The position numbers were made by a program, and so were the translations under genes. This document shows, in pieces, positions 7,788-35,563 of a DNA stretch of 37,453 nucleotides. The notes beneath the pieces were generated by a model. It saw nothing but the letters and a program-made list of their open reading frames with translations. It made no database searches and was not told where the DNA came from. Position 1 is the first letter of the stretch, and each line of letters begins with the position of its first letter. The stretch is from Aulosira sp. ZfuVER01. Lineage in GTDB: Bacteria; Cyanobacteriota; Cyanobacteriia; Cyanobacteriales; Nostocaceae. The DNA is taken from positions 1 to 37,453 of the forward strand of contig JAVRCV020000082.1 in assembly GCA_034530615.2 (NCBI GenBank). The letters run 5' to 3'.

Positions 7788-8080
7788 GGTTAAACAGCCT
7801 TCAATAAGTATATTTAGGGAGAAAGCTGGGTAGACTTTACACACAAATTTTACAATAGCTGAACTTCTAATTAAGCCATTTACTGGTACTAGGGGTATTC
7901 TTGAGTGAACTGAGCAGGTAGGAGAGATGAGCTAACCACTTGAACGCTCGTTTAGTCGCACTAGTTTACAAATTGTTGCCTTATTTTTTGGCAATATTCG
8001 TTACGTTAGCAGGTAATCGCTGTAATTGGGTATGAAGATGTTGGCTGATTAATCCAAGATTACCAAGGAGACTGTGAGGC

Positions 8081-10603
8081 ATGAACGAACCCTTGAATGT
8101 TCTAATTATTGAAGATTCTGAGGCCGATACTATGTTAGTTCTCTATGAGCTGCGTTTCGGTGGTTTCAGTCCCATCTGGCAGCGTGTTCAAACTGCCCAA
8201 GAATTACATACAGCTCTTGATAACAGTACCTGGGATGTCATCATTTCGGATTATCGATTACCTGAATTCAATGCTCCTGCGGCTTTAGAAATAGTAAAGC
8301 ATAGTCAGAAAAATATTCCTTTCATTCTAGTTTCCGGTGCAATCGGCGAAGTACTTGCTGTGGAAATGATGAAAGCAGGTGCTCATGATTATGTAATGAA
8401 AGATAATTTAAACCGATTGCCAGAGGCAGTACGTCGAGAAGTTCGAGATGCACAGGTACGAGCAGAGCACAAACAAGCCCAAGCAGAACTAGAAAATCAA
8501 AGAATATTCCTGCGGCAAGTCTTTAATCTCGTTCCTAATAGTATTTTTGTCAAGGATACTCAAGGTCGTTTTGTCACTATTAGCCAAGCAGGAGCAGCTG
8601 GCTATGGAGTGAAGGTTGAGGAAATTATTGGTAAGTGGGAAAATCAGTTTACTAATATTGCCCACGAACAGATGGAGCAGTATTTAATCAATAATCAAGA
8701 GACAATTCAGATTGGGCAGCGACAAATTTATCCTAGCCAAGCGATTGTCAACAAACAAGGAGAAGTCCGTTGGTATAAAACAATTGTAGAACCTTTTGTA
8801 GATTTCCAAGGTGTGGTGCAGGGAGTTATCGGTTCTGCAACAGATATTACTGATATTAAACAAGCAGAAGCAGCATTACAGCATAGCCAAAAGTTACTAC
8901 AAACATTAGCGTCGAATATACCCGGAATGATTTACTCCTTTGTGCAGCATTCTGATGGTTCTGCTGCCTTTGAGTACATCAGTTTGGGATGTAAAGATTT
9001 GCTAGAGTTAACGCCAGAGCAAGTTTTAGAAAATGCTTCTCTTTACTTTGCACAAATTCATATTGAAGATCGTGCAGGGTATGACGCGGCGCTCAAGCAG
9101 AGCGCTCAAACTTTAAAACCATTGGCTTACGAGTGGCGATTAGTTACACCCTCTGGCAAACTCAAGTGGGTACAGGTAAACGCTCGTCCAGAGTATCGAG
9201 ATCGTGGGGATATTGTCTGGCATGGTGTTTTATTAGATGTGAGCGAACGGCAAGCCGCGCTTCACGAACGCAAACAGGTACAAGAATTGATTATTCACAA
9301 CGCCTTGCACGATCCATTAACGGGTTTGCCAAATCGCACATTGTTAGCAGAGCGGCTGGAATTAGCAATTAACCAAGCTAAACGATTGGAAAGCTATGGT
9401 TATGCTGTCTTGTTTCTAGATCTAGATCGATTCAAAGTAATCAATGATAGTCTTGGGCACTTAGCTGGAGATGAATTACTTAAAAATATTGCTCAGAAAC
9501 TAAAAACTCATCTGCGGGAGACTGATGTAGTCGCTCGACTGGGTGGTGATGAATTTGTAATCTTGCTGGAAGATATTTCTTGTATTGAAAAAGCCATTCA
9601 AATTACCGAACGGATATTAACAGATTTTCAAACACCATTACTAGTTAATGATTCCGAATTAGTTATTAGTGCAAGCATCGGTATTGTGTTAGGAACAAAG
9701 AACTATCATCAACCCTCCGATTTACTGCGAAATGCCGATATTGCCATGTATCGAGCCAAAGCTCAAGGGAGAAATTCTTATAAAATTTTTGATTTAGAAA
9801 TGCACGCTCAAGCCATAAATCAACTAACTCTAGAAACCGATCTCCGGAAGGCGATCGAACGGCAAGAGTTTATGGTGTATTATCAACCTATTATTGACAT
9901 ATTTAGCGAGCGGCTAATTGGATTTGAGGCATTGGTGCGCTGGCAACACCCAACTCGCGGGTTAATTTTGCCGGGGGAATTTATTTCTCTAGCTGAAGAA
10001 ACTGGATTAATTGTGCAGATAGATCGCTGGATGTTTTACACAGCTTGCCAACATTTAGCGAACTGGAAAGCAAAGTTTGCTAGTGACTTACTGCTCAAAA
10101 TTAATATTAACATTTCTGCCCAAGATATTCGCAATTCTAGCTTCATTGAAGACATCGATCAAACGCTAGCTCAAACAGGTTTAGCCGGCGATTCCATAGC
10201 CATAGAAATTACCGAAAGTATGCTAATTGATAATATCTCTAAGACAATTGATTTATTAAATGAATTAAAAACTAGAAAAATTCAGATTAGCATTGATGAC
10301 TTTGGTACTAGTTATTCATCGCTCAACTATCTTCATCGCTTACCTGCTGATAATTTGAAGATCGATCGCTCCTTTGTGAGTCAAATGCAGCAAGGAAATC
10401 GTAATTATCAGGTCGTTAGTACCATCATTGCTTTGAGTAATCAACTCGGACTAGCTGTTGTTGCAGAAGGTATCGAAACACCTCAACAACTTCAATGGTT
10501 ACAACAACTTAAATGCGAATTCGGTCAAGGGTATTTGTTCTCCAAACCTCTAAGCCACGAGACAGCAGAAGCACTTCTGGCAAATAAAAGTTTGTGGTTT
10601 TAG
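8081..10603 (+). CDS. Response regulator REC-PAS-PAS-GGDEF-EAL (c-di-GMP cyclase/phosphodiesterase)
   Basis: REC: LIIEDS, IISDY, YVMKD. Two PAS domains. HDPLTGLPNR, RETD I-site, RLGGDEF. FEALVRW, DDFGTSYSS, AEGIE, GQGY. SD-like AAGGAG upstream of the ATG. Confidence 0.95.
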   Translation: MNEPLNVLIIEDSEADTMLVLYELRFGGFSPIWQRVQTAQELHTALDNSTWDVIISDYRLPEFNAPAALEIVKHSQKNIPFILVSGAIGEVLAVEMMKAGAHDYVMKDNLNRLPEAVRREVRDAQVRAEHKQAQAELENQRIFLRQVFNLVPNSIFVKDTQGRFVTISQAGAAGYGVKVEEIIGKWENQFTNIAHEQMEQYLINNQETIQIGQRQIYPSQAIVNKQGEVRWYKTIVEPFVDFQGVVQGVIGSATDITDIKQAEAALQHSQKLLQTLASNIPGMIYSFVQHSDGSAAFEYISLGCKDLLELTPEQVLENASLYFAQIHIEDRAGYDAALKQSAQTLKPLAYEWRLVTPSGKLKWVQVNARPEYRDRGDIVWHGVLLDVSERQAALHERKQVQELIIHNALHDPLTGLPNRTLLAERLELAINQAKRLESYGYAVLFLDLDRFKVINDSLGHLAGDELLKNIAQKLKTHLRETDVVARLGGDEFVILLEDISCIEKAIQITERILTDFQTPLLVNDSELVISASIGIVLGTKNYHQPSDLLRNADIAMYRAKAQGRNSYKIFDLEMHAQAINQLTLETDLRKAIERQEFMVYYQPIIDIFSERLIGFEALVRWQHPTRGLILPGEFISLAEETGLIVQIDRWMFYTACQHLANWKAKFASDLLLKININISAQDIRNSSFIEDIDQTLAQTGLAGDSIAIEITESMLIDNISKTIDLLNELKTRKIQISIDDFGTSYSSLNYLHRLPADNLKIDRSFVSQMQQGNRNYQVVSTIIALSNQLGLAVVAEGIETPQQLQWLQQLKCEFGQGYLFSKPLSHETAEALLANKSLWF
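9244..9270 (+). repeat. Probable 21-nt in-frame SDR-like insertion bounded by direct repeat CGAACG
   Basis: CGAACG at 9244-9249 and 9265-9270, 21 nt apart. The protein reads DVSERQAALHERKQ where the related PAS in the next gene ends DISDRKR. Confidence 0.55.
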
Positions 10604-10638
10604 TGCTGATGCCGTTGGTGAATTCAATTCATGACAAC

Positions 10639-10675
10639 CCCTTAGAATAAGCCTACAAGCTGGGTACTCTAAGGG
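10639..10675. promoter_or_regulatory. Imperfect inverted repeat between co-oriented genes (possible RNA hairpin)
   Basis: CCCTTAGAATA (10639-10649) pairs with TACTCTAAGGG (10665-10675) at 10 of 11 positions. No U-tract follows. Confidence 0.35.
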
Positions 10676-10709
10676 ATATATTTCTCGCAGGTTACTCTGA
10701 GGGTTGGAA

Positions 10710-13700
10710 ATGAAGAGCCTCACCATCGATTTACCAGGTTATCAAAGCACAAATCAGCTTTATGCAGGGTCGCGCACCCTAGTTTATCAAGCAATTCGGG
10801 AAGCAGACCAATACCCAGTCGTCCTCAAGCTGCTACGAGAGGAATACCCCTCGTTTGGAGAATTAGTCCGGTTTCGCAACCAGTACGTGATTGCCCAAAA
10901 TCTGGCACTGAAAAGTGTGGTTAAACCATTGGCACTCTTGCGGTATCGTCAGAGCTATGCTTTGGTAATGGAGGATGCAGGCGGAGTTTCCCTGGCGAAT
11001 TATCTTAGGGCAGATGGCGACTGCCCAACCCCCTTAGGAGTCACAGACTTTCTCATCATCGGATTGCAACTAGCAGAAACACTCTGGGAACTGCATCGCT
11101 GTCGGGTGATTCACAAAGACCTCAAGCCAGCTAATATTCTGATTCAGCCAGAAACTAAGCAAGTAAAGCTGATTGACTTCAGCATTTCTTCCCTGTTGCC
11201 TAGAGAAACCCTAGAAATTCAGAATCCCAATGTTCTCGAAGGTACTCTGGCTTATCTGTCGCCGGAGCAAACTGGACGGATGAACCGGGGGATTGACTAC
11301 CGCAGCGATTTTTATTCTCTAGGTGTGACGTTTTACGAACTCCTAACGGGGCAACTTCCGTTTACGACTCCCGATCCGGTGGAACTGGTGCATTGCCACA
11401 TTGCCAAATCTCCGACGCCTGTGGCTGAGATCAATCCGACAGTGCCCACTGTCATCTCAGATATTGTCGCTAAACTCATGGCGAAGAATGCAGAGGATCG
11501 CTATCAGAGTGCCTTGGGGCTGAAGCACGACCTGGAACGCTGTCAACAGCAGTGGGACGCAAATGCCGACGGTATCGCCTCCTTTGCGTTGGGACAGCAG
11601 GATATATGCGATCGCTTCCTAATTCCTGAAAAGCTTTATGGTCGTGAATTGGAAGTGCAAACGTTGTTAGCGGCGTTTGATCGCGTCAGTGAAGGCGCAA
11701 CCGAACTGATGCTGGTTGCTGGCTTTTCCGGGATTGGCAAAACGGCGGTGGTGAATGAAGTTCACAAACCCATTGTGCGGCAACGAGGATATTTCATCAA
11801 AGGCAAGTACGATCAGTTCGGGCGCAACATTCCTCTATCTGCCTTTGTGCAAGCCTTTCGGGATTTAGTCGGTCAATTGCTGGCAGAAACTGACGCCCAA
11901 CTCAAAACCTGGAAAGAGAAAATCTTAAGCGCAGTGGGTGAAAACGGTCAGGTGATTCTGGACGTGATTCCGGAACTGGAGCAGATTATTGGCAAGCAAC
12001 CACCGATGCCCGAACTATCGGGAAGCGCAGCACAAAATCGCTTTAACTTAGTATTTCAAAATTTTACCCAAGTCTTTACAACTAAAGAGCATCCACTGGT
12101 AATTTTTCTGGACGATTTGCAATGGGCAGATTCCGCATCGTTGCAACTGCTGCAACTATTAATGAAGGATGCGGGGCATCTGTTGGTGTTGGGTGCATAC
12201 CGGGATAACGAAGTCTCCCCCACCCATTCATTAATGATAGCGATCGCCCAGATGACAAAAGCCAAAGCAGCAGTGAATACGATGACGCTGATGCCCTTGA
12301 GCCAGGATAATGTAAATCAATTGATTGCAGATACCCTCAATTGTGAGGACGCGATCGCCCAACCCCTGACCGATTTGGTCTATGGTAAAACCAAAGGCAA
12401 CCCGTTTTTCACCACACAGTTTCTCAAGGCACTGCATGAAGATGGGTTGATTGCCTTCAACTTGGAAGCAGGCTGCTGGCAGTGTGATATCGCTCAGGTA
12501 CGCTCACTTGCCCTTACCGATGATGTAGTCCAGTTTATGGCACTACAACTTCAGAAATTACCCCCAAATACCCAAAACATTCTCAAATTAGCTGCCTGTG
12601 TCGGCAACGCTTTTGATTTGCAAACCCTGGCAATTGTGAGTCAGCGATCGCCTGAAGATGTCGCTGTAGATTTGTGGAAAGCCTTGCAGGAAGGTTTGGT
12701 TTTGCCAATTAGCGAAGTCTACAAGTTTTATCAGGGAGAACAAACGAATGCTCCTGCGATCGGCGATCGCGATCGGGTGGCGAAATACCGCTTTCTCCAC
12801 GATCGCGTCCAGCAAGCAGCTTATGAACTCATCCCAGACTCGAAAAAGCAAGCCACCCATTGCGAAATTGGTCAGTTATTGCTGCAAGGCACTCCCATCG
12901 CCGCCAGAGAAGCAAATAGTTTTGAGATTGCGCGGCATTTGAATATTGGTGCTTCCTTAATCGGCGATCGCACATTATTAAATCAATTAGCGCAATTAAA
13001 TCTCTTCGCTGGCAGAAAAGCCAAAAAGTCAACGGCTTACACAACTGCAATTGAACACTTTAGTAAAGGAATTGCTCTGCTAGCAACGAATACATGGCAA
13101 GAGCAGTACGAAACTACCCTGGCGCTGCACAACGAAATTGTGGAAGTTTATTTGCTGACGGCACAGTTCAACCAAGTGGAACAATGGGCACAGGTCGTAC
13201 TGGAACGTGCAAAAACGGTGTTAGATACAGTGAAAGTTTATATTGCGCGAATTCAAGCTTGCATTGCTCAAAATAACCTGTCCTTGGCAGAACAAACTGC
13301 CCTAACCATTCTCAAGCATCTGAATATCCAGTTTCCCGAAAATCCTACAGATGCAGAAGTTCAGCAGTCCCTGACAGCAACTCAAACTCGCTTTGCCTGT
13401 TATAACGTCGAAGCATTGGTAAACCTGGATGAAATGACCGATCCGGTTTACCTGGCAGCAATGGAGATTTTAGTCACCGTTGTCACAGCATCTCACCAAT
13501 CTGTATCGCCATTATTTCCACTGATTGTCTGCAAACAAATCGATTTATCCCTAGAGTATGGTAATTCCCCTGCCTCTGCCTCTAGTTACTCCTGGTTTGG
13601 CTTAATCCAGGCAAGTCCGTCTGGCAATCTCGATCTCTGCTATCAAGCAGGTGAAGTGGCATTAAGGCTGATTGCTACACGACCTAACGATGGTTTAAAA

Positions 13701-16589
13701 GCCAAAACCATGAACATTACTCATGCTTTTGTGATGCACTGGAAACGGCATGGACGCAATGAATTACAGCCTTTGCTGCAAACTCATCAAATTGGTCTGG
13801 AAACTGGAGAACTTGAGCATGGTGCCTATGCCCTGTATAACTACACAGGAATTTCTTTTGCTATTGGGCGGAATTTGAGCGAGATGGAGCAGGAGACGGA
13901 GACATTCGATCGAGTCATTACTGAGCTACAGCAGGGTACGGCTCTTTGCTTTTTGAGAATTATGCGACAGGCGGTGCTAAATCTGCGCGGAAAAGCGCCC
14001 GATCCCTGCCGCTTAATTGGAGACGCTTATGATGAAGCAGTCATGTTACCCCTACACCAAGCCAACCGGGAACAGTATGCGATTTGCAGCATTTATCTCA
14101 ACAAGCTGGTTTTGAGTTATTTATTCAATGATTATCAACAGGCATTTGAAAATGCCATGCTGGCGGAACAAAATTCCGTGGCGCTGACGGCAGCATTGAA
14201 ATATACTCTCATCTACTTCTACAGTTCACTCACACAGTTAGCAATCTACCCAACTGCGACTCCAGCCCAACAAGCGGTGATTTTAGAAAACGTTGCTACC
14301 AATCAAGCCAAGATTCAGCAATGGGCCCACTATGCACCGATGACTCACGCACACAAATTTGACTTGATAGAAGCGGAACGGTATCGAGTCTTGGGCGCAA
14401 CCTATCAAGCAATGGTTTACTACGATCGCGCGATCGCCAACGCTAAAGAAAACGGCTATATCCAAGAAGAGAGCCTTGCCAACGAACTCGCAGCTAAATT
14501 TTACCTGGACTGGGGCAAAGAAAAAGTTGCCGCAGGCTACCTGCAAGAAGCCTACTACGGCTACGCCCACTGGGGCGCCAATGCCAAAATTGCCGATCTG
14601 GAAACTCGCTATCCACAGCTACTCCAGCCCATCCTCAACCAACCTCAATTCAGCTTTAATCCTCTGGAAACCCTCGCCACCTTTAATCATGCTGCCAGCT
14701 ATAGTTCAACTCCAGTCTCTAGCAGTAATACCAACCTGGGCAATGCCCTTGATTTTGCCGCCGTCCTCAAAGCAGCCCAAGCCCTCTCCAGCAGTATCCA
14801 GCTAGAGGAGCTAATTCGCAGCTTAACTCAAATGATTCTGGTAAACGCCGGAGCCGAAACCTGTGTGCTGCTGCTGCCCTACCTTGATGAATGGCAAATT
14901 CGTGCGATCGCCAAGCTGGAATCGGGCAGTTTCTCACCTACTACCCATTTGCAAACCACAACCTTGGAAAACTCGACTGTGGTGCCAATGCAGCTGATTC
15001 AGTACGTCAGACGCACCCAAGAAACACTGATCGTTAACGGTAGCAAAACAGATATTCCTGGTGCGATCGGTGAGTATATGCTCAAGCATCAGCCCCAAAG
15101 TGTCTTGTGTACGCCTATTCTTAATCAGGGTAAGTTGGTGGGTGTGTTGTATTTAGAACATCGAACTACAAAAGGGGTGTTCACGCGCGATCGCCTGTTG
15201 GTCACGACCTTTTTATGTACCCAAGCTGCCATTTCTCTGGAAAATGCCCGCCTTTATCAAGAGTCACAAACTTATGCCCAGCAGTTGGAAAACTCCTTGA
15301 CACAACTGCAAACCAGTGAAGCCCGCTTCCAAGCACTGACAGATAATATTCCTGGTATGGTTTATCGCTTCCATCTGTCTCCCGACGGTTCCACATCAAC
15401 GCCCTACGTCAGTTCTGGCTGCTATGACCTGTATGAGGTGGCTCCTGAAAGTGTGATGAGGGGGGGGGATAACCTGTATCGGATGAACCATCCAGATGAT
15501 GTTTTACTGGTTAATCAAGTCATCAGCGACTCTGCCCAAACCCTAACCCCGTTTAAGCATGAATGGCGGATTATTACTGAGTCAGGCAATATAAAATGGA
15601 TACAAGCAGTCTCCCGACCGCAAACACAGCCCAATGGTTCAATAGTATGGGATGGGGTAGTCATTGACATTAGCGATCGCAAACGTGCTGAAGCCGCCAT
15701 CACCCAAAAATCTCAGGAATTAGAACAAGCCCTACAAGACTTGCAAAAAGCCCAATTACAAATGATTCAAACTGAAAAGATGTCTGCCTTGGGTAACTTA
15801 GTCGCTGGGGTCGCACACGAAATCAATAATCCCGTTGGCTTCATTTCTGGCAACCTTAAAGAAGCCCAGCAAAGGCTGCAAGAATTAATGGAGCATCTGA
15901 ACTTATATCGCACCCAAGCATCAGATACCGAGATCGCAGACCATGCCGAAGAGATTGATTTAGACTATCTCATCGAAGACTTGCCGAAGATGATGGACTC
16001 GATGAAACTGGGATGCGATCGCATCAAAAGCATCAGCACCAGCCTCCGCACCTTTTCCAGAGCCGATCAGAATCATCAAATCGCTGCGAATCTTCACGAG
16101 GGCATCGATAGCACGATTTTAATTCTCAAACATCGCCTCAAAGCAAATGAATTGCGACCCGCGATCGCAGTTATTACTGACTACGGCAATATCCCCGCGA
16201 TTGAATGCTTTCCTGGACAACTGAATCAGGTGTTTATGAATATCTTGGCAAATGCGATCGATGCTTTGGATGAAGCGAATATTGGACGCAGCTTTCTCGA
16301 TATTCAAGCTAATCCGAACCGGATTACGGTGAAAACCTCCCTCTGTGATACTCACCAATCTGTCCGCATCTCGATTCAAGACAATGGCATCGGTATGGCA
16401 GATGATGTAAGAGAGAAGATTTTCGATCATCTGTTTACCACTAAAGATGTGGGGAAAGGTACTGGATTGGGATTGGCGATCGCTAAGTCTATTGTGGTGG
16501 AAAAACATAGTGGGGCAATCGAGGTTAACTCAACCTTGGGCGAGGGTACGGAGTTTGTGATTACGCTACCCGTTAAAGCTAAACGTTAA
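10710..16589 (+). CDS. Second HstK-type hybrid: Ser/Thr kinase + STAND-like AAA ATPase + helical region + GAF + PAS + histidine kinase
   Basis: HKDLKPAN, DFS, GTLAYLSPEQTGR. Walker A GFSGIGKT, Walker B VIFLDD. GAF QSVLCTPILNQG. PAS ending DISDRK. H-box VAGVAHEINNP, NILANAIDA, DNGIGM, FTTK, GTGLGL. Start is ATG 10710 or TTG 10704. Confidence 0.93.
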   Translation: MKSLTIDLPGYQSTNQLYAGSRTLVYQAIREADQYPVVLKLLREEYPSFGELVRFRNQYVIAQNLALKSVVKPLALLRYRQSYALVMEDAGGVSLANYLRADGDCPTPLGVTDFLIIGLQLAETLWELHRCRVIHKDLKPANILIQPETKQVKLIDFSISSLLPRETLEIQNPNVLEGTLAYLSPEQTGRMNRGIDYRSDFYSLGVTFYELLTGQLPFTTPDPVELVHCHIAKSPTPVAEINPTVPTVISDIVAKLMAKNAEDRYQSALGLKHDLERCQQQWDANADGIASFALGQQDICDRFLIPEKLYGRELEVQTLLAAFDRVSEGATELMLVAGFSGIGKTAVVNEVHKPIVRQRGYFIKGKYDQFGRNIPLSAFVQAFRDLVGQLLAETDAQLKTWKEKILSAVGENGQVILDVIPELEQIIGKQPPMPELSGSAAQNRFNLVFQNFTQVFTTKEHPLVIFLDDLQWADSASLQLLQLLMKDAGHLLVLGAYRDNEVSPTHSLMIAIAQMTKAKAAVNTMTLMPLSQDNVNQLIADTLNCEDAIAQPLTDLVYGKTKGNPFFTTQFLKALHEDGLIAFNLEAGCWQCDIAQVRSLALTDDVVQFMALQLQKLPPNTQNILKLAACVGNAFDLQTLAIVSQRSPEDVAVDLWKALQEGLVLPISEVYKFYQGEQTNAPAIGDRDRVAKYRFLHDRVQQAAYELIPDSKKQATHCEIGQLLLQGTPIAAREANSFEIARHLNIGASLIGDRTLLNQLAQLNLFAGRKAKKSTAYTTAIEHFSKGIALLATNTWQEQYETTLALHNEIVEVYLLTAQFNQVEQWAQVVLERAKTVLDTVKVYIARIQACIAQNNLSLAEQTALTILKHLNIQFPENPTDAEVQQSLTATQTRFACYNVEALVNLDEMTDPVYLAAMEILVTVVTASHQSVSPLFPLIVCKQIDLSLEYGNSPASASSYSWFGLIQASPSGNLDLCYQAGEVALRLIATRPNDGLKAKTMNITHAFVMHWKRHGRNELQPLLQTHQIGLETGELEHGAYALYNYTGISFAIGRNLSEMEQETETFDRVITELQQGTALCFLRIMRQAVLNLRGKAPDPCRLIGDAYDEAVMLPLHQANREQYAICSIYLNKLVLSYLFNDYQQAFENAMLAEQNSVALTAALKYTLIYFYSSLTQLAIYPTATPAQQAVILENVATNQAKIQQWAHYAPMTHAHKFDLIEAERYRVLGATYQAMVYYDRAIANAKENGYIQEESLANELAAKFYLDWGKEKVAAGYLQEAYYGYAHWGANAKIADLETRYPQLLQPILNQPQFSFNPLETLATFNHAASYSSTPVSSSNTNLGNALDFAAVLKAAQALSSSIQLEELIRSLTQMILVNAGAETCVLLLPYLDEWQIRAIAKLESGSFSPTTHLQTTTLENSTVVPMQLIQYVRRTQETLIVNGSKTDIPGAIGEYMLKHQPQSVLCTPILNQGKLVGVLYLEHRTTKGVFTRDRLLVTTFLCTQAAISLENARLYQESQTYAQQLENSLTQLQTSEARFQALTDNIPGMVYRFHLSPDGSTSTPYVSSGCYDLYEVAPESVMRGGDNLYRMNHPDDVLLVNQVISDSAQTLTPFKHEWRIITESGNIKWIQAVSRPQTQPNGSIVWDGVVIDISDRKRAEAAITQKSQELEQALQDLQKAQLQMIQTEKMSALGNLVAGVAHEINNPVGFISGNLKEAQQRLQELMEHLNLYRTQASDTEIADHAEEIDLDYLIEDLPKMMDSMKLGCDRIKSISTSLRTFSRADQNHQIAANLHEGIDSTILILKHRLKANELRPAIAVITDYGNIPAIECFPGQLNQVFMNILANAIDALDEANIGRSFLDIQANPNRITVKTSLCDTHQSVRISIQDNGIGMADDVREKIFDHLFTTKDVGKGTGLGLAIAKSIVVEKHSGAIEVNSTLGEGTEFVITLPVKAKR

Positions 16590-17008
16590 GTTTGCAATGG
16601 TGCCAGTACGCTCACTGTCCGCTACATCCAGAGTCATCGTGATGACTATGTACTTGATGAGTATCAGCAGTGCCACCAACTTCTTCGCTTGCTCCGGTTT
16701 GGGATTGTTGGGATGCAGAATTGGATGATTTACCTGTTCGCTTTTACCTCAGCTTAGATTAAAAATAAATACATCTTCCCGTCGATAGAGTCAAGCTCAG
16801 GCTTTTTACCTAAAACGAGAATTGCTTTCACTACTTGAAATGGAGGTACGCGATCGCTTATCTTGAAAAGCGTTAGGGATCTAGAGGAGGATTACTGAAA
16901 TTCAAAAGACTTAAATCGCTAGATATGATTCTGAAGATTGATGCAGAGAAATGCCGTTTTTGTCATTCTAGAAACCAAGTTTAGATGTATTCCTCTAAAG
17001 TCGAGAAA

Positions 17009-17206
17009 ATGGCTGGAAGATCAGAACAGAGAACTTTGATACGTGAAAACACTATCCTTGCTGCCAAAAACTTTTTAGCAAAAATGGACAACGACGCCAC
17101 ACCAGAAGAATTGGACATGATCGCCAATAGTGTCGGTGAGATTGCACTCTTTTGGCATCTGATTGGGAATCCTGAGGAGATTTCTTCGCTGGAGTTGCAA
17201 GGGTAG
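17009..17206 (+). CDS. Small acidic helical hypothetical protein (65 aa, or 73 aa from ATG 16985)
   Basis: Intergenic ORF MAGRSEQRTLIRENTILAAKNFLAKMD... with protein-like amphipathic composition. No family recognised. Confidence 0.55.
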   Translation: MAGRSEQRTLIRENTILAAKNFLAKMDNDATPEELDMIANSVGEIALFWHLIGNPEEISSLELQG

Positions 17207-17831
17207 TACTAAACAGCAATTAACTTGACTGCTACTAACAATTACCATACTAGCACCAAAACTGATTGGGCAATTTTTTTTGCTATCTGCATTGAAGATT
17301 TCTCCTTGGTACAAAATTGTTACTAGAGCTAAAAATCAGTGTGCTAACTTTCCATTTTTTGTCTTTTAGTCTGTTGAATAAAAGGTGTAACATTCCACAT
17401 TAGAAAAATTTATTATTTTGATTATTTAACCCTATATTTATAGATATATTATTAACCTAGTTCTGGGTGGAGTGGAAGTTGATTGTTTTCCATTTAAAAA
17501 ATATAGATTAGCTTGTCAAGACTAATTACTCTGATGAACTGACTTCGAGGTAATATTGATAATCTAACTAATTAAAAGGGTGATTTATTTTTCTCTGGGT
17601 AGAGTATGAAAGCGTGTTAAAAATATCTTTGTACAGCCTGGCGATTAATAAGTACTTTGCATTAATCTTTGTGACTATAAAATTCTAGGGTGAAGATAAG
17701 CAATCATGCCTCGAACCTGTATTTGCTCAAAGTTTCAGCTTGTAGATTGAAAATATTAGATATAGCAAATTTGATACTCAACCGAGCTATTGTCTAGCAT
17801 TATACTCATGAGGCGAAGAAAGAGAGGTGCT

Positions 17832-20615
17832 ATGGCTGCTCGGAGAAAATCACAGTTAAAAGCTTTTGAGACATCTATTTTGGAGGCTTTAGACCAGGTA
17901 GAACGAGCTACCTCAAAACTGTTTAAGCTGGAAGATATTCTAGAAGCAGTCTGTCGAAACATCCTGGCACTGGGTTTTGATTTCGCTAACATATCTTTAA
18001 TTTCTCTAGAAAAAAATATTATTGAAGGAGTACATGGAAGTGGCGCGGGAGTAGTATGGGCTAATCTGGCCAAACATTACCTAGAACCAGACCCAGAACT
18101 AAGAGATATTCAGGCAGATATAGTCCAAACTCAGCAAACTGAGATTATTTCTGGATGGGACAAACGCTTTGACCGCTGGATTTATCAAGAGTATGGTCAT
18201 GAAAAGTTGGTTCGGGTATTTACGCCAATTGTTCTGGTTCAAGATTATAACGGCAAAGTTATAAAAAATTGGTTTGAGCGCTGTAAATGGGAGAAAATAA
18301 ATCCTCAATTTGAGGAAAGTAGGAAAAGACAGCATGAGGTTTACCAGTTGCGTCTAGCACCAGATCTGCAACCTGAGGGGCGCAATCCAGAGGTAATAGT
18401 CATAGGTACAGTAGAAGCAGGTTATAGTTCACCGGAAAGACGAATTGAGGAAAAAACATTATCGCGATTTCTGGACTACATTGCTCGGCAATCTTTGGAT
18501 ATTTGGCAAGCACAACTACCTCGGGTTTTAGAAACAATAGCAGAGAAAGCCAAGCAAATTCTCAATGCTGATGCAGCAACCCTGCATTTTTTATACGAGC
18601 CAAATTTAGAACAGGGTCGTTACATTTATGAAGTATTTTCTCATGGCATTGGTAAGCAATTTCTGAAAGCTTGTCCACCACGTCATAATGGACTGGGACG
18701 ACAAGCGATTCTAGAAAGAAAGTACAAGTTTATCCCAGACTTATCTCAAGGTCATGACAAACTGGAAATGGCAACGCTTAACCCACAAGCTTTTTCGGCT
18801 GGGATTAAAGCAATGGCAGCTTTCCCGTTGCAGGTTGAGAACAAAGAAGGAATACTTTATGTGCTTTTCCGCCGCACATATATATTGTCTACACGTAAAC
18901 TGCGCTTAGTAGAACTATTTGTCCGACAGTGGGCTGTTGATGCAATTTGGCATCCCATCAGAATCCAGCAAATGCGTGATGAAGCACGCCAGCTAGCAGC
19001 GCTCTACTCTGTCACCCAATCCCTTGGTCGTATACCAGAAGATAATCTTTTACATCGTGTCGCTTGGAATACGTTGAATGTCCTAGGTGCAGATGTAGTT
19101 AATATCTACGAATATATCCAGACCGAAAGGCAATTTACGACTCCTCCTAAGACAGCAGGAAGATTGAGACAAGAGCAGAAGATGCAAGATGAGATTATTG
19201 AACACGATGTACCATTTTTGCTAATTCAGCGAGGAGAAAACGTTTATGCTCCACAACTGGAAAAAGAACCGATATTTCAGAATTCAGCCTTTACTCGCAG
19301 GGAAAAAATTCATTCTGCTGCTGGTGTCCTGCTAGAAGTTGATAAAGATATAGTCGGAGTAATGTTTATTAATTACCGACGACCTCACAGTTTTTCGGAA
19401 GATGAGAAAAAGATGATTGAAACTCTGGCTTCTTCAGCTGCGATCGCCATCAAAAATCAACGCTGGCTAGCAACTCTCAGCGACATCGATCGCAAGATTA
19501 TCACTACTCTAGACCAAAAGGAACTCCTGAACCTGATTGTACAGCGAGCAGTACAGATTTGTGGGGCTGATGTTGGAAATCTCCGCTTACTAGATCTCAG
19601 TCAACAAGAGCTTGTTACTAAAGCCAAGTATGCTGTACATGAAACTATTGAACTCATCGAAAGACGGAATAGCATCAACGAAGGGATCACAGGTTGGGTG
19701 GCCAGAAATGGCCAATCGGCATTGGTAAATAATGTCCTAATTGATTCACGTTACCAAGCTGACTTTGCCAATATACATTCTGAGTTATGTGTGCCACTCC
19801 TAGATGATAAGCGCTTACTAGGTGTACTGAATGTGGAAAGCCAGCATCTTTCAGCTTTTAACCAGAGACACCAGCGAATGTTAGAAGCCTTAGCAGATCA
19901 AGCAGTGATTGGTATCCAGAACTTAGAAAACAAAAGGCAACTGGTGAATATGGAAACAATGGCAACTCTGGGTGATTTGGCTGGCCCATTAGTGCATCGT
20001 ATGAATAATGATGTGGGTGCAATTCGAGTCTGGGCACAAGATATTCTGGATGAGGGTGATGAGAACAGCAAGAGTAGGGCGCAGCGAATTTCATCAAGAG
20101 CAGATAGGGTTTTGCAAGGTGCCGATCGCATGAAAATTTGGATTCAGGAGAAACCTCATGCTATTAATTTATCTGAGATAGTGGTAAATGCACTAGCTAG
20201 AATGTCCATACCTGCGAACATCATTCCCAATATTGAGGTATCGTCCGACTTACCAAAGGTCTTAGGGGGTGAACAGCAATTAATATATGTTTTTGATAAC
20301 CTAATCCAAAATGCTGTGGAAGCTATGCCCCAAGGTGGTAGGGTATCGATTGTTGGCACTAATGTGCAAAGAGAAATACAGTGTTGGGTGGAAGTGCAAA
20401 TATGTGATACTGGCGTAGGCATTGCCGCAGAAAACTGGGAAAAGATTTTTCAGCCTGATTACACCACGAAAACAGCAAGGAGAGGTATGGGTTTTGGATT
20501 GTGGTGGACAAAATTGTATGTGGAACGTTTGGGAGGTTATTTAAGTGTGAATAGTGTACTGAATCAAGGGACTAATTTTACTATGCTCTTGCCAATCTAC
20601 AAACCAGAAACTTAA
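17832..20615 (+). CDS. Soluble multi-GAF (four GAF-like domains) sensor histidine kinase
   Basis: Four GAF-like units, e.g. EGITGWVARNG...SELCVPLL...LGVLNVES and VGVMFINYRRPHSF. Atypical H-box LVHRMNNDVGAI (His codon 19995-19997), NLIQNAVEAM, DTGVGI, YTTK, GMGFGL. No transmembrane stretch. GAGG SD precedes ATG 17832. Confidence 0.9.
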   Translation: MAARRKSQLKAFETSILEALDQVERATSKLFKLEDILEAVCRNILALGFDFANISLISLEKNIIEGVHGSGAGVVWANLAKHYLEPDPELRDIQADIVQTQQTEIISGWDKRFDRWIYQEYGHEKLVRVFTPIVLVQDYNGKVIKNWFERCKWEKINPQFEESRKRQHEVYQLRLAPDLQPEGRNPEVIVIGTVEAGYSSPERRIEEKTLSRFLDYIARQSLDIWQAQLPRVLETIAEKAKQILNADAATLHFLYEPNLEQGRYIYEVFSHGIGKQFLKACPPRHNGLGRQAILERKYKFIPDLSQGHDKLEMATLNPQAFSAGIKAMAAFPLQVENKEGILYVLFRRTYILSTRKLRLVELFVRQWAVDAIWHPIRIQQMRDEARQLAALYSVTQSLGRIPEDNLLHRVAWNTLNVLGADVVNIYEYIQTERQFTTPPKTAGRLRQEQKMQDEIIEHDVPFLLIQRGENVYAPQLEKEPIFQNSAFTRREKIHSAAGVLLEVDKDIVGVMFINYRRPHSFSEDEKKMIETLASSAAIAIKNQRWLATLSDIDRKIITTLDQKELLNLIVQRAVQICGADVGNLRLLDLSQQELVTKAKYAVHETIELIERRNSINEGITGWVARNGQSALVNNVLIDSRYQADFANIHSELCVPLLDDKRLLGVLNVESQHLSAFNQRHQRMLEALADQAVIGIQNLENKRQLVNMETMATLGDLAGPLVHRMNNDVGAIRVWAQDILDEGDENSKSRAQRISSRADRVLQGADRMKIWIQEKPHAINLSEIVVNALARMSIPANIIPNIEVSSDLPKVLGGEQQLIYVFDNLIQNAVEAMPQGGRVSIVGTNVQREIQCWVEVQICDTGVGIAAENWEKIFQPDYTTKTARRGMGFGLWWTKLYVERLGGYLSVNSVLNQGTNFTMLLPIYKPET

Positions 20616-20662
20616 GCATAAGCTAGGCATTAAATACCACAAGTGGTGGCAAGGAGGAACCG

Positions 20663-21724
20663 ATGATATTTTTCAAAGTTCTTCTGGTTGAGGATGACTC
20701 AGATTGGCAAGATATCCTTGAAGGCAAGATCCGTACAGCTTTAAGTAATATTGGTCATCCTAAGGATATCATTCAGGTTGTCAGGACTTTTGATGAAGCT
20801 TCTAAAGCATTTAGAGATAGCAATTGGCATTTGCTAATTACTGATATTGGTTTGGGCGATTCATCTCTTTCTCGCCGTCAGAAGTTAGGAATACATTTAG
20901 TTGAACTTGCTTATGCTCGGCAGATACCAGCTATTGCTGTCAGTGGAACACCTGTGGTAAATACTCAGGATGTTCGCGATTTATTGATGGAATACAAAGC
21001 CTATGATTTCTTTAGCAAACGCGATTTTGACAGTAAAAAATTTATCAATAAAGTTCAATATATTTTATATAATGAACTCCAAAAATCATCAAATAATAAC
21101 GAAATTTTAAATAGTTCAACTGTTGACTATCAACAATTTGCGAGCGCAGCTAATCCTCTGAAAATTCTGTTTTTAGCATCCGATCCTAGTGATGCTGCTC
21201 GGTTACGCTTAGGACAAGAGTTGCGAGAGATTCAACAAAGATTGCAATTAGCTAAACAAAGAGAAAAATTTTTGCTAGAACAACGCCTGTCAGTACGTCC
21301 CGGCGATATCAGTCAGGCTTTACTGGATATTGAGCCTCATATCGTACATTTTTCTGGACATGGTATGAATACTGGTGAGTTATATGTAGAAAATGAGTTA
21401 GGTAAAATTCAATCTCTAAAGCCTGATGCTTTAGCTTCATTATTTGAACTCGTAGAAGACCAAGTAAAATGTGTAGTCTTGAATGCTTGCTATTCTCAAA
21501 CTCAGGCGGAGGCTATCGCTAAATACATTCCGTTTGTCATTGGGATGAACCATTTAATTGGCGATCAAGCCGCGATCGCATTTTCTGTTGGTTTTTACAA
21601 AGCACTGGGTGCTAATCGTTCGATAGAGAAAGCTTACAAGTTTGGCTGTACTGAAATTCAATTACATGGTATAGCGGAGAATTTAACTCCAGTTATTTAT
21701 AAAAAAAACTCCAATTTGAGTTAA
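20663..21724 (+). CDS. Response regulator receiver domain fused to CHAT (caspase-like) protease domain
   Basis: REC: VLLVEDD, LLITD61, AVSG, FFSK. CHAT: KILFLASDP...LRLGQELREI, HFSGH233G, VVLNAC276YS, VIGM...FYKAL. AAGGAGG SD; starts 47 nt after the kinase stop. Confidence 0.9.
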   Translation: MIFFKVLLVEDDSDWQDILEGKIRTALSNIGHPKDIIQVVRTFDEASKAFRDSNWHLLITDIGLGDSSLSRRQKLGIHLVELAYARQIPAIAVSGTPVVNTQDVRDLLMEYKAYDFFSKRDFDSKKFINKVQYILYNELQKSSNNNEILNSSTVDYQQFASAANPLKILFLASDPSDAARLRLGQELREIQQRLQLAKQREKFLLEQRLSVRPGDISQALLDIEPHIVHFSGHGMNTGELYVENELGKIQSLKPDALASLFELVEDQVKCVVLNACYSQTQAEAIAKYIPFVIGMNHLIGDQAAIAFSVGFYKALGANRSIEKAYKFGCTEIQLHGIAENLTPVIYKKNSNLS

Positions 21725-31495: not shown

Positions 31496-33625
31496 ATGCT
31501 GGGAAACACACTTGTTGGAAGATACCAAATTATTAGCCACTTGGGTGGTGGGGGATTTGGGGAAACCTTTGTCGCTTGTGATACTCAATTGCCGGGATCT
31601 CCTCAATGTGTTGTGAAAAAACTTAAGCCTCAGGCAAACGATCCAGTAACGTTAGAGACTGCTAGACGTTTATTTGATACAGAAGCTCAAGTTCTGTACA
31701 AATTAGGCACTCACGATTATATTCCCCAACTTTTAGCATATTTTGAAGAAAATGCAGAATTCTATCTGGTACAGGAATTTATCGAAGGACATAACCTGAG
31801 TCAAGAATTAATACCAGGGAAAACTTTTAGCCAAGATGAGGTAATTTCGCTATTGATGGAAATCTTGGCAATTTTAGAGTTTGTTCATCAACAGAAAGTA
31901 ATTCACCGCGATGTCAATCCGTGCAATGTTCTCAGACGGAAGCAAGATGGCAAGTTAGTATTAATTGACTTTGGTGCGGTTAAACAAATTACTACCCAAG
32001 TTATCACGCCACAGGGTCAAACTAAATCTACTGTTGCTATCGGTACGCCGGGATATCTCCCTGGGGAACAAGCACAAGGTAATCCCAAATTTAGCAGTGA
32101 TATTTATGCGGTGGGAATCATTGCGATTCAAGCTTTAACAGGATTACCACCTGAACAATTAGAAAAGGATGATGATACTAATGAAATTATCTGGCAAAAA
32201 TATACTCAAGTTTCGCCAGAATTCGCACAAGTATTAAACAAAATGGTATGTTATGACTTTCGGCAGCGCTACGCTTCGGCAACAGAAGCATTACAGGCAC
32301 TCAAGGAGTTAACAAAGCCAGCCCCGCAAACAATAGCATTAACTCCGATACTGCAATTTAAGAATTTAAAAAATCATAAATATAAAAAAGAGATAATTCG
32401 CAAAATTTTAGCAGCAGTATTTATCTTGGGCGTAAGTGGGGCTGCTTTGACATTTATTCTTGACGGTATCTATACGAATAACGCCACAGAATTATATAAA
32501 CAAGGCAATACCTTGTATGACTTACAACGCTATCAAGATGCACTTGCTGTCTATGATAAAGCAGTGAATATTAGACCGAATTATGCTCAAGGATGGTATG
32601 GCCGAGGCAACACTTTATCTGCATTAAAACAATATAAAGAAGCGTTAGCAGCATACGATAAAGCAATTCAAATTCAGCCAGATTACTTAGAAGCTTGGAC
32701 TAGTAGAGGCTTAGTTTTAGAAAATTCACAGCGCTACCAAGAAGCGATCGCCTCTTTTGATAAAGCTCTACAATTAGAAAGTAACTCTCCCGAAATCTGG
32801 AATGCTAAAGGTGAAGCTTTTAGTAATTTGCAGCAATATGAAAATGCGATCCAAGCTTACAATCAAGCAATAGAATTGCAAAATAATTATGATATTGCTT
32901 GGTATAATAAAGGTTTATCGCTGCAAAATTTAAAACGCTACGAAGATGCAATTACAGCCTACGATAAAGCCATAGAATTAAAGCCAGATCGTCAAAATTA
33001 CTGGTACAATCGTGGCAATTCTTTGGTAAATTTAAACCGCTATGAAGATGCATTTAGAGATTATGATAAAGCGGTACAATATAAATCAAATTATTATCAA
33101 GCTTGGTTATCTAGAGGTAATGTGTTGATTACTCTGCGACGTTATCCTGAAGCAGTTACATCTTTTGACCAAGTAATTAAATATAATGCTAATAACTACC
33201 AAGCATGGTATAGTCGAGGCTGGGCATTACATCAAAGTCAACGCTATCAAGAAGCAATTGAATCCTACAATAAAGCCATAGCTTTGAAGCGTAACGATTA
33301 TCAAGTTTGGTATAACTTAGGAAATTCTCAATACAATTTACAGAAATACGCAGATGCGATCGCATCCTATAATAGAGCAGTGCGTTACAAGCCAGACTAT
33401 TACGAAAGCTGGTACAGCAGAGGCAATGCTCTAGTGAATTTAAAACGCTATCAAGATGCGATCGCATCTTATGCTCAAGCAATAAAATATAAGCCTGACT
33501 ACCAACAAGCAATAGAAGCGAGCAAGCAAGCACAAAATCAACTACAACGTGAAAAACCACAGCCTGTAGTTGTACCCATAATGCGACTTCCTAATCCTTT
33601 TGCTCCTAATCAACAACCACGCTAA
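31496..33625 (+). CDS. Membrane Ser/Thr protein kinase with 10 C-terminal TPR repeats
   Basis: LGGGGFG, VVKKL, HRDVNP, IDFG, GTPGYLPGEQ. Transmembrane segment ILAAVFILGVSGAALTFIL, then ten 34-aa TPRs. Confidence 0.95.
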   Translation: MLGNTLVGRYQIISHLGGGGFGETFVACDTQLPGSPQCVVKKLKPQANDPVTLETARRLFDTEAQVLYKLGTHDYIPQLLAYFEENAEFYLVQEFIEGHNLSQELIPGKTFSQDEVISLLMEILAILEFVHQQKVIHRDVNPCNVLRRKQDGKLVLIDFGAVKQITTQVITPQGQTKSTVAIGTPGYLPGEQAQGNPKFSSDIYAVGIIAIQALTGLPPEQLEKDDDTNEIIWQKYTQVSPEFAQVLNKMVCYDFRQRYASATEALQALKELTKPAPQTIALTPILQFKNLKNHKYKKEIIRKILAAVFILGVSGAALTFILDGIYTNNATELYKQGNTLYDLQRYQDALAVYDKAVNIRPNYAQGWYGRGNTLSALKQYKEALAAYDKAIQIQPDYLEAWTSRGLVLENSQRYQEAIASFDKALQLESNSPEIWNAKGEAFSNLQQYENAIQAYNQAIELQNNYDIAWYNKGLSLQNLKRYEDAITAYDKAIELKPDRQNYWYNRGNSLVNLNRYEDAFRDYDKAVQYKSNYYQAWLSRGNVLITLRRYPEAVTSFDQVIKYNANNYQAWYSRGWALHQSQRYQEAIESYNKAIALKRNDYQVWYNLGNSQYNLQKYADAIASYNRAVRYKPDYYESWYSRGNALVNLKRYQDAIASYAQAIKYKPDYQQAIEASKQAQNQLQREKPQPVVVPIMRLPNPFAPNQQPR
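32483..33502 (+). repeat. Ten tandem TPR-coding units (102 nt each)
   Basis: 34-aa period W..RG..L..L.RY..AI..Y..AI...P.Y. The DNA word GATGCGATCGCATC recurs 102 nt apart in the last two units. Confidence 0.9.
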
Positions 33626-33715
33626 TCGCCTCTAATATTGAAGTGATTTCAGGATGCTGTCACCAATTGCTAACTGCATTTTGGTGAATTTTGCTTCTAT
33701 AACTTGAGGTAGTAA

Positions 33716-35503
33716 CTATTGAATACTCATGCCTTCAATATCAATGATAGGTCTGAGTTTTTCAATTTTCCTATTTGAGTAGTAACGGCTATCTGAATTT
33801 GGCTTTTTTACCGCAGAATTTTGTTTTGATAAAGCTACGCTATTAGTTTGCGATCGCAAGCGTTGCTTTTGAGTATACTCATTCAATTTGATTCGAGCTT
33901 GTGCGTAAACTGGAGTATTTTTTGGAACCTTTTGGAGAAATTTGACAGCGTCTTCAAATTCACCAGCAGAGGCTTTATTGTAAGCTTTTTGGAGAAAGAA
34001 TGTAGCTCTAACTTTTTGCTTTTGATCGTACTCAGCCAATTTTTTCTGTACTATAACTCCCGCCGAACTTTCTACAGGAACTTGACGCAGATATTCTATA
34101 GCAGTGGAAAACTCTCTGTTATTTGCACTTGCATAAGCTTTTGCTAATAAGTCTTGTGTCTGTGCTTCAACATGAGTGCGTGCTTGCTCAACTAGTTTAT
34201 CTGTTTTCGATTGCCAATATAAAATATCCGGCACTTTAGCAGCAACACTCAGTACATCTGACCATCTACCAGCATTAAAGGCTGTTTCCGCAAATTGGTA
34301 TTGTTCAGCAGCCACTTGCCATTGCTGTTGCCATTCGTCAATTGTGGCTTGAGCTTCTGGATAAATTTTACTGTCTGAAGGAATCGACTTTACCAGAGCG
34401 ATCGCTTCTTGTAAATCTCCAGCTTGATATTCTTCTGTTGCTTTATATAAAGTTTCTGTTTCTGAATAGGCTGGGGAATTAGTAAATAAAGAATACATTC
34501 CCAATCCTAGCAACATAGAATTAGCCGCTATACCTATTCTCATTCCTGTTAGTAGAGGAGCCGATTTTTTGGTTGCAGAACTTTGAGGTAAATGGCTAAC
34601 TGTTACAGATGGTTCTAGGTACAGGCCATGCTGTTCTTCTACAGGTGGTAAATGAGTTTCCCACAGCATTTCTTGAAGTATATGCAGTACTTCACTTGCA
34701 GATTGAAAACGGTCTTGAAAATCGTAGCGGATCATTTGGCTGAGAATCGCAGCTAAATAATCATTAACTGCTATTTGTGGAGAATGCCAAATAATCTCAT
34801 TCGTATAAGGATCTAATTTAAATTGTAGTGGTGACAATCCTGTTAATGCTTGGATAGCAATTATACCTAAAGAATAGATATCACTGTTGGGCTGTGTTTG
34901 ACCAATAAATTGCTCTGGCGGTATGTATCCCAATGAAGTCACAGGAACTGAATGGATAGGTAATTCTGAATCTGCACCAAAATCAAAGGGCTGGATTGAG
35001 CCAAAGTCAATTAGGACTAATCTGCCATCATAAGCACGTCTGATCAGATTTTCCGGCTTGATATCGCAATGGATAACGCCTTGAGCATGAACAAATTCCA
35101 GAATTCCTAAGACATCCTCGAGAAATGCGATAACTTGGCTCTCACTCCAAATATCCCCACACTGTTTATTAATTGGTAATTCTTCTGTCAGTGCGTGTCC
35201 TTCAATAAACTCTTGCACTAAGTAGAATCGCTCATTTTCTTCAAAGCAAGCAATGAGTTGGGGAATTTGAGCGTGGCGTCCTAGACGCTTGAGAGTTTCG
35301 GTTTCCGTGAGAAAACGCAGCCTTAAGTTATCTAAGTAACTAGGGTGAGAACTGCTAACCTTTAGTTGTTTAACAACGCATTTCGGGTTTTCTGGGTATT
35401 CTATGTCTACGGCAATGTATGTCTGTCCAAATACCCCTGCACCTAGGCTTTGGACGATTTGGTAACGCGCCTGTAGTACTTTACCGATCATGTGGTGGGT
35501 CAT
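33716..35503 (-). CDS. Non-RD Ser/Thr protein kinase with single TM and helical (TPR-like) C-terminal region
   Basis: LGAGVFG, VVKQL, IHCDIKPEN, IDFG, SLGYIPPEQ. Hydrophobic segment IGIAANSMLLGLGMYSLF. ATG 35503 or 35491 preferred over GTG 35584. Confidence 0.9.
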   Translation of the reverse strand: MTHHMIGKVLQARYQIVQSLGAGVFGQTYIAVDIEYPENPKCVVKQLKVSSSHPSYLDNLRLRFLTETETLKRLGRHAQIPQLIACFEENERFYLVQEFIEGHALTEELPINKQCGDIWSESQVIAFLEDVLGILEFVHAQGVIHCDIKPENLIRRAYDGRLVLIDFGSIQPFDFGADSELPIHSVPVTSLGYIPPEQFIGQTQPNSDIYSLGIIAIQALTGLSPLQFKLDPYTNEIIWHSPQIAVNDYLAAILSQMIRYDFQDRFQSASEVLHILQEMLWETHLPPVEEQHGLYLEPSVTVSHLPQSSATKKSAPLLTGMRIGIAANSMLLGLGMYSLFTNSPAYSETETLYKATEEYQAGDLQEAIALVKSIPSDSKIYPEAQATIDEWQQQWQVAAEQYQFAETAFNAGRWSDVLSVAAKVPDILYWQSKTDKLVEQARTHVEAQTQDLLAKAYASANNREFSTAIEYLRQVPVESSAGVIVQKKLAEYDQKQKVRATFFLQKAYNKASAGEFEDAVKFLQKVPKNTPVYAQARIKLNEYTQKQRLRSQTNSVALSKQNSAVKKPNSDSRYYSNRKIEKLRPIIDIEGMSIQ

Positions 35504-35534
35504 GAGCTGGTTACTGAGTAAGTCCTGATATAGG

Positions 35535-35563
35535 TTTTCTGACTTTTCCCCCCAATTTCCGGA
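35535..35563 (-). promoter_or_regulatory. Candidate DIF1 (heterocyst differentiation) promoter
   Basis: The minus strand reads TCCGGA (35563-35558), N18, GAAAA (35539-35535), ~30 nt upstream of ATG 35503. Confidence 0.6.

Follow-up and report, generated by a model that had tools for sequence, protein, structure and literature searches.

A GAF-sensor histidine kinase and its REC-CHAT partner in Aulosira: a candidate two-component conflict cassette with exchangeable outputs

Can a two-component system act directly through a caspase-like protease? The question is raised by a 37,453-nucleotide (nt) stretch of Aulosira sp. ZfuVER01 (contig JAVRCV020000082.1; the window, to which all position numbers refer), in which the gene for a soluble histidine kinase is followed by one for a receiver domain (REC) fused to a CHAT protease domain. 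A sequence-only reading had proposed that phosphorylation of the receiver could switch on proteolysis for defence, cell death or development. Here, we report that the predicted wiring from kinase to REC is well supported by comparison, namely by pairing, residue conservation and purifying selection. CHAT is present as the output of this pair; what the earlier reading had missed is that the pair belongs to a family whose outputs are interchangeable. By sequence comparison and by analogy, the pair is probably a Detocs-like, phosphorylation-gated conflict cassette acting in defence or cell death. Its parts are the following:

17832..20615, + strand: soluble sensor histidine kinase, GAF1-GAF2-GAF3-GAF4-DHp-CA, 927 amino acids (aa) (Pfam, AlphaFold model, hydropathy)
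17889..19466, + strand: GAF1-GAF2-GAF3 triad, residues ~20-545, the family-defining sensor module (alignments, AlphaFold model, fold matches)
19467..19931, + strand: GAF4, residues ~546-700 (Pfam GAF_2 at 560-696)
19932..20612, + strand: kinase core with His722 (19995-19997) and N, G1, F and G2 boxes (Pfam and alignments)
20652..20657, + strand: Shine-Dalgarno sequence AGGAGG, 5 nt ahead of the REC-CHAT ATG (sequence)
20663..21724, + strand: REC-CHAT response regulator, 353 aa (open reading frame (ORF), homologue alignment, predicted model)
20663..21073, + strand: receiver domain with Asp61 (20843-20845) plus E10, D11, S94 and K119 (alignment and fold match)
21074..21151, + strand: flexible linker of a length that varies among homologues, with a ratio of nonsynonymous to synonymous substitution rates (dN/dS) of ~1 (alignment, model, dN/dS)
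21152..21706, + strand: short-type CHAT protease domain with His233 (21359-21361) and Cys276 (21488-21490) (Pfam and SAVED-CHAT alignment)
17585..21704, + strand: two-gene cassette shared with congeners, comprising ~250 bp of upstream DNA and both genes (blastn against loci L093 and L095)

A conserved kinase and REC-CHAT pair

The REC-CHAT gene starts after an intergenic gap of 47 nt. In its 353-aa product, Pfam recognizes CHAT above cut-off (E 2.8e-6) and misses the REC; Response_reg is matched in 19 of the 23 aligned homologues. The REC part of the predicted model superimposes on solved receivers with Z ~17 and a root-mean-square deviation (rmsd) of 2.0-2.5, and it combines that fold with the acidic pocket, the Asp, the Ser/Thr and the Lys expected of a receiver. 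The model as a whole (pLDDT 82.2, pTM 0.54) falls below 50 in pLDDT at residues 144-162, within a linker (residues 138-163) that contains 9 Asn/Ser among its 26 residues and is predicted to be disordered. The best overall structural match is SAVED-CHAT 8tl0 (Foldseek E 6e-12; Z 19.8, rmsd 11.6 over 279 residues), to which the CHAT part alone also aligns by sequence (E 2.6e-12) at both dyad motifs. A caspase-like fold combined with the His-Cys dyad places the domain in protease clan CD. An alignment of the window protein with 22 full-length homologues (323-396 aa), taken from the best 120 of 1713 REC-CHAT homologues, revealed an invariant Cys276, whereas His233 is kept in 21 and Asp61 in 22 of the 23 rows. 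REC-CHAT is thus a real, intact and conserved protein. That it is a truncated CHAT-STAND gene is ruled out, as these homologues span the full REC-CHAT length, and self-cleavage in the linker was rejected as well, the alignment containing no conserved site. Promoter and terminator scans gave results at chance level.

The kinase measures 927 aa when counted from its ATG, and a TTG in the same frame is located 42 nt further upstream. Pfam detects three GAF stretches and HATPase_c (E 8e-19) and misses a fourth GAF at the N-terminus, which is supported by AlphaFold, whose model of residues 1-558 (pLDDT 87.7) resembles tandem-GAF structures in fold searches, even though these matches are generic (9-20% identity). 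Fold searches with the GAF region pointed to no ligand and returned generic GAF matches only, and inspection of the sequence by eye revealed none of the bilin-binding motifs DIP, CH and DxCF. A beta-hairpin region is inserted in GAF1, in which many polar residues are invariant. Since the peak hydropathy over 19 residues is 1.39, the kinase has no membrane helix. The phospho-His together with the GHKL ATP-binding boxes marks it as a two-component kinase. An Atlas search returned generic GAF clusters and no feature match for REC-CHAT, with structure matches over CHAT only. The layout given by the sequence-only reading is borne out in its details: a soluble kinase with four GAFs and a REC-CHAT protein on the + strand (ORFs, Pfam, AlphaFold model, hydropathy), their 47-nt spacing with a strong Shine-Dalgarno sequence, a short Asn/Ser-rich linker, and the residues H722, E10, D11, D61, S94, K119 and H233/C276.

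Pairing of kinase and REC was assessed in loci collected from both sides, that is, fetched with the REC or with the kinase. The counts include redundant loci and leave out loci without a complete kinase as well as four non-cyanobacterial REC matches (L028-L031), which were dropped as generic and have no family kinase upstream. Among 61 kinase-core ORFs with a good match, 54 are directly followed by a member of the REC family (41 distinct RECs). All 17 cyanobacterial loci fetched with the REC have the kinase upstream, and in 37 of the 44 loci fetched with the kinase the REC family comes next, which becomes 37/37 when only complete kinases with GAF1 at the N-terminus are counted. The seven exceptions all carry an extension ahead of GAF1, consisting of pentapeptide repeats where scanned. 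Distances in the kinase and REC trees correlate (Spearman 0.76, 0/2000 permutations), a figure that is inflated by kinship among the loci. Pentapeptide repeats precede the GAF triad at L101-L107 and L111-L114, where the kinase core may be present or absent, no REC follows and the preceding genes encode CHAT, alpha/beta hydrolase or EAD8 proteins.

Removal of duplicates and of one locus with a cut-off kinase left 35 distinct pairs. The phospho-His is present in 34 of these kinases, the sole departure being Gln at L014, and the phospho-acceptor Asp is found in 37/37 receivers, two standalone ones included, with the Lys in 35/37. In a wider kinase alignment, the His is kept in 107/113 and the N-box Asn in 119/121 sequences. 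Conservation of the dyad, which the earlier reading had made a touchstone, was confirmed in 36 of 38 distinct REC-linked CHATs (His 36/38, Cys 38/38). The standalone receivers belong to L118 and L119, i.e. 2/35 pairs. In L121-L125, behind kinases of a distant GAF subfamily lie a standalone gene of receiver size and then a large ORF, a Detocs-like three-gene layout; the large ORF is a subtilase where scanned (L121, L123), and L121 also has a CHAT gene.

Purifying selection acts on both genes: comparison of the window with four congeners yielded dN/dS of 0.08-0.14 in every domain of kinase and REC-CHAT (CHAT 0.09, sensor 0.08-0.12) and ~1.0 in the linker. The cassette family is patchy and relocating. 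The REC is matched in 7/401 genomes of the order, and the GAF1 profile in 46/389 genomes of the family (ten weakly) and in 8/14 congeners; in the phylum of genome G762, a single weak GAF1 match was obtained among 351 genomes. Similarity by blastn to L093 and L095 spans exactly 17585-21704 at 88-89%, and there the cassette occupies another chromosomal site, between two Ser/Thr kinase genes whose window counterparts lie adjacent at 31496-35584. The gap between these convergent genes (33613-33759) corresponds to the cassette site in L093/L095; no terminal repeats were obvious by eye. The genome of the window also harbours a CHAT remnant (contig C13, 1430-1975) that resembles a sister REC-CHAT clade, contains one internal stop and has no REC match; downstream of it lies the same 344-aa gene as at L021. 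RNA runs contained 0.05 of the words, and contigs from four libraries of one study span a pair of this kind, which is no demonstration of expression here because these contigs belong to a relative.

Exchangeable outputs and a shared sensor

What is attached to the receiver varies widely. The 35 distinct pairs comprise the following outputs: short CHAT (15), C14 caspase (4), C14-EAD7 (2), EAD8-trypsin (3), long CHAT (1), TIR (2), TIR plus PNP (1), PNP (2), STAND ATPase (3), calcineurin-like phosphoesterase (1) and one unassigned. Proteases thus account for 25/35. REC-EAD1 also occurs in the family, PNP outputs are located at L009, L011 and L036, and no DNA-binding output domain emerged from Pfam scans of the 35 pairs. 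Output domains of this kind are listed as conflict effectors in the accessible text of two surveys (PMC7159879, PMC8195603), and PNP is a Detocs effector (bioRxiv 10.1101/2023.01.24.525353).

On the kinase tree, 11 output classes require 13 changes (minimum 10, shuffled mean 19.4), indicating that outputs cluster by lineage with few repeated switches. Neither the kinase tree nor the REC tree forces more than one origin of the CHAT label. A tree of the CHAT domains, by contrast, splits the REC-linked ones into more than one clade (132 rows, 10 changes), and a single CHAT clade is disfavoured by the approximately unbiased test (p 0.00035), which used a 34-row subset picked after the first tree was seen. 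Each of 15 congeners has 3-15 short-CHAT matches in its genome, and the simplest reading of these sequence comparisons is repeated exchange with a large short-CHAT pool. Mosaic loci were observed in the caspase-EAD7 lineage (L013, L040-L044, L046, L047), where kinases that are 97-100% identical accompany three REC types of 40-66% identity, two of them without the conserved Lys, and two EAD7 types of ~55-60% identity. No REC type is confined to a single contig; seven of the eight loci are metagenome contigs.

The sensor is found on other platforms as well. A search for relatives of the triad gave 560 clusters at E <= 1e-10, and GAF1, 2 and 3 are kept together in most of the 216 relatives compared, including longer multi-GAF kinases. 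The triad is C-terminal in the TIR-nSTAND1 proteins P0304 and P0323 (Dankookia rubra), in the nSTAND1 protein P0311 and in the AAA_35 protein P0249, while P0197 has GAF1 behind trypsin-nSTAND1 and P0298 unites GAFs, kinase, two RECs and TIR in a single chain. In NLR-like proteins, the C-terminal position is usually that of the sensor. The triad is also joined to an AAA_15/AAA_21 ABC-type ATPase in P0176. An example from the window's own genome is L016 (contig C46, 73965-78498, - strand), an ORF of 1044 aa that shares 91% identity with the window kinase over its first 545 residues, with DNA similarity over 1683 bp, and ends in a STAND ATPase. Upstream of it lies a 370-aa gene for a coiled-coil plus AAA_16 protein, whose N-terminus, EAD9-like in appearance but without a Pfam match, resembles by eye the tails of P0124, a REC protein, and of CHAT proteins including P0081. 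Judged by these comparisons, the GAF triad is a putative sensor module, so far undescribed, that appears to have been linked to immune-like platforms independently.

Proposed mechanism and alternative readings

A phosphorylation-gated conflict cassette could operate in four steps. First, the cytoplasmic GAF1-3 triad would sense a conserved danger cue, for which a small molecule or a conserved intracellular state is likelier than a fast-changing phage protein. Second, as the conserved residues suggest, H722 would be autophosphorylated and the phosphate passed to D61. Third, by analogy with SAVED-CHAT and in keeping with output swapping, the phosphorylated receiver may dimerize or cluster, or may cease to inhibit, so that the loosely tethered CHATs become active. 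Three observations favour clustering, namely the disorder and variability of the linker, the occupation of one slot by unrelated enzymes and the activation of SAVED-CHAT by oligomerization. Finally, the H233/C276 protease would cut a target encoded elsewhere in the genome, and arrest or death of the cell would protect the filament. The earlier reading had left defence, cell death and development side by side; we favour defence or cell death over development, since in other loci this kinase-REC module is coupled to outputs of the TIR, PNP, caspase, EAD-trypsin and STAND types.

Several observations weigh against a conflict function or against the switch as drawn. Diversifying selection left no trace in the sensor across the five congeners compared. 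Neither the kinase nor the REC has a PADLOC match, and a PADLOC scan of 114 neighbours at 31 loci (E <= 1e-20, ORFs >1100 aa excluded, without a control set) matched 12, all of generic types (seven PD-T4-6 kinase-like, two PDC-S03/S17, two mad3 and one WD40-type), that is, without a defence-island signal. The cassette's neighbours in the window are signalling and housekeeping genes (Pfam, 17 window proteins). Consistent with the earlier statement that no substrate gene is evident in the pair, no conserved third gene and no substrate gene were found across the homologous REC-CHAT loci; of the two things that the suggested neighbourhood survey could reveal, it yielded the kinase pairing. The locus contains no gasdermin gene, and the bGSDM model was silent in this genome, as was its control. 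A candidate target on contig C34 (L017, 75140-77280, + strand), where a standalone 192-aa CHAT precedes TRADD-N fused to extra HetZ-related protein 2, was rejected, being full-length in just 2/15 genus genomes, one of which (G423) has no GAF1 match. Within the proteins themselves, the H-box reads HRMNN, with a non-acidic residue at H+1, and the same holds for 35/35 distinct kinases (R, K, Q, W and H are commonest among 124), whereas an acidic residue follows the phospho-His in classical HisKA kinases; the conserved Lys is missing from some RECs that bear other outputs, and one small clade (P0050, P0112) has lost the CHAT His.

Some of these points lend themselves to a different view, in which the pair is a non-defensive stress or developmental two-component system whose GAFs respond to a cue from metabolism, redox state or nucleotides and whose CHAT makes a specific regulatory cut, comparable to that of HetF, which acts in heterocyst and division control. 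Strong purifying selection that includes the sensor, ordinary chromosomal neighbours devoid of a PADLOC island signal, a weak similarity to HetF (E 5.3e-10, far below cut-off) and the RNA-library contigs over a relative's pair, though no proof of transcription, are compatible with such a role. However, the cassette GAF1 is not matched in 6/14 congeners, close relatives carry the cassette at different sites, a broken sister-clade remnant persists in the same genome, and TIR and PNP outputs fit the destruction of metabolites rather than regulation. We regard a stress or developmental role as rather unlikely, yet as the strongest competitor.

The H+1 position, the Gln at L014 and the RECs without Lys would instead fit inverted or non-canonical control: the kinase could autophosphorylate weakly or in an unconventional way, or serve as a phosphatase or scaffold, and a phosphorylated or kinase-bound REC could hold the CHAT off until loss of the signal releases it, as in a guard. 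The toxicity of the lone Detocs effector domain, described in the accessible part of that report, is in line with this. Retention of the phospho-His, the N-box Asn and the receiver Asp at the frequencies given above speaks against it, and the standalone 'buffer' receivers of L118 and L119 are what one would expect if phosphorylation activates, the model put forward for Detocs; inverted control is improbable. That the CHAT is a docking module recruiting other short-CHAT conflict proteins, or a passenger of domain shuffling, with proteolysis not being the output, is suggested by the abundance and repeated exchange of short CHATs and by the two of 38 that lack the His, but is highly improbable given the invariant Cys, the 36 retained His residues, the low dN/dS of the CHAT and the other protease types in the same slot.

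Genes around the cassette were also inspected. EAD, TRADD-N, iSTAND or nSTAND1 genes adjoin L010, L091, L110 and L120 according to Pfam. Throughout one REC-CHAT clade (L010, L021, L022, L024, L088, L091), an 850-aa protein is encoded divergently from the kinase; it was discarded as a substrate, having no Pfam, PADLOC or NCBIfam match and being absent beside the window's clade. A third HetZ-related-2 match in the window's genome is found within an 870-aa frame on contig C61. In the window, two Ser/Thr kinase-AAA_16-GAF-PAS-histidine kinase genes flank a REC-PAS-GGDEF-EAL gene at 2136-16589, a cluster that precedes the cassette solely in this genome among five compared. A functional tie between the cassette and signalling genes upstream of it (among them 10704-16589) was dropped, as similarity to four congeners ends at 17502-17585. 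Between this cluster and the cassette lies a 73-aa ORF (16985-17206, + strand) with no Pfam or NCBIfam match, and a 517-aa papain-family gene (Peptidase_C1) is located at 35818-37371 on the - strand.

If the conflict reading is right, the cassette would provide a direct switch from phosphorylation to proteolysis, in which a response regulator has a caspase-like protease as its output, and defensive two-component systems would have arisen more than once, with a sensor unlike that of Detocs. Two genes and four point mutants would suffice to test regulated cell death in filamentous cyanobacteria, and the TIR and PNP sister cassettes would offer easy readouts (loss of NAD+ or ATP) for finding the trigger of the GAF sensor. 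A broader proposal, which we put forward tentatively and hold to be less likely than the conflict role itself, is that GAF1-3 is an undescribed prokaryotic danger sensor serving histidine kinases and NLR-like STAND ATPases. The kinase branch might then be a second, independently assembled defensive two-component family, mainly of filamentous cyanobacteria, in which phosphorylation of an Asp would act directly on caspase-like proteases, turning them on so that individual cells of the filament die or arrest.

Comparison with known systems

The sequence-only reading knew of no characterized REC-CHAT output. Indeed, no description of such an output or of this kinase family was found in the literature searched, which included few subscription papers, so that an earlier bioinformatic mention is possible; what had been overlooked is a characterized analogue, Detocs. 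Among more distant comparisons, HetF (NF045509) reaches a score of 38 against a cut-off of 1200, over the CHAT part. The PADLOC model 'chat' (PDLC02988) describes a related protease domain and matches the CHAT part alone (E 4.3e-18); judging from neighbouring accessions, it is presumably tied to gasdermin systems, from which the present locus differs in having no gasdermin gene. The PADLOC model cll gave no match.

Conflict systems of multicellular bacteria built on EAD and TRADD-N domains draw on the same effector pool, including caspase, trypsin, TIR, PNPase, calcineurin-like, STAND and EAD1/7/8 modules, and share the layout of a constant plus a variable part (PMC7159879, PMC8195603). In the accessible text of these surveys, their receivers occur without histidine kinases and no kinase is found among the vWA-associated effectors, whereas a dedicated kinase is the constant part here. 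No EAD was matched in the window pair; EAD1, EAD7 and EAD8 reside on sister RECs.

The closest known protease relative is, by fold and sequence comparison, apparently SAVED-CHAT (PDB 8tl0), in which a sensor is flexibly linked to the same short type of CHAT with the same dyad motifs and which is activated by sensor-driven oligomerization, as far as the accessible report describes (bioRxiv 10.1101/2023.06.23.546230). A receiver replaces SAVED in the present protein, which is hence not a member, and no source of cyclic oligonucleotides, CRISPR or CBASS genes or PCaspase was found among the 17 window proteins scanned.

The closest known system overall appears to be Detocs. According to the accessible part of its description, DtcA is a kinase with a TPR sensor, DtcB a standalone receiver and DtcC a receiver joined to an effector, all three genes being required; defence requires the His and the Asp as well as the active site of the effector, the effector domain is toxic by itself, the standalone receiver is proposed to act as a buffer, and the effectors named are PNP (80%), REase, TOPRIM, transmembrane and hydrolase (bioRxiv 10.1101/2023.01.24.525353). 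Both systems combine a soluble sensor kinase with a receiver fused to a swappable enzyme instead of a DNA-binding domain (REC-CHAT here; REC-PNP and REC-TIR-PNP in sisters), and PNP is common to both. They differ in the sensor, which is TPR in Detocs and a GAF array without TPR here, in the number of genes, the cassette usually comprising two and the window pair having no standalone receiver, and in the outputs, which are mostly proteases in a cassette known from sequence alone. From its A/B/C architecture, PADLOC PDC-M60 presumably represents Detocs; its model PDC-M60A was not found in the window's genome, where the control was silent as well. Taken together, these comparisons suggest that the cassette works like Detocs without being a member, and that what is new in this kind of defensive two-component system is the predominance of predicted proteases among the outputs and a putative sensor that has not been described before.

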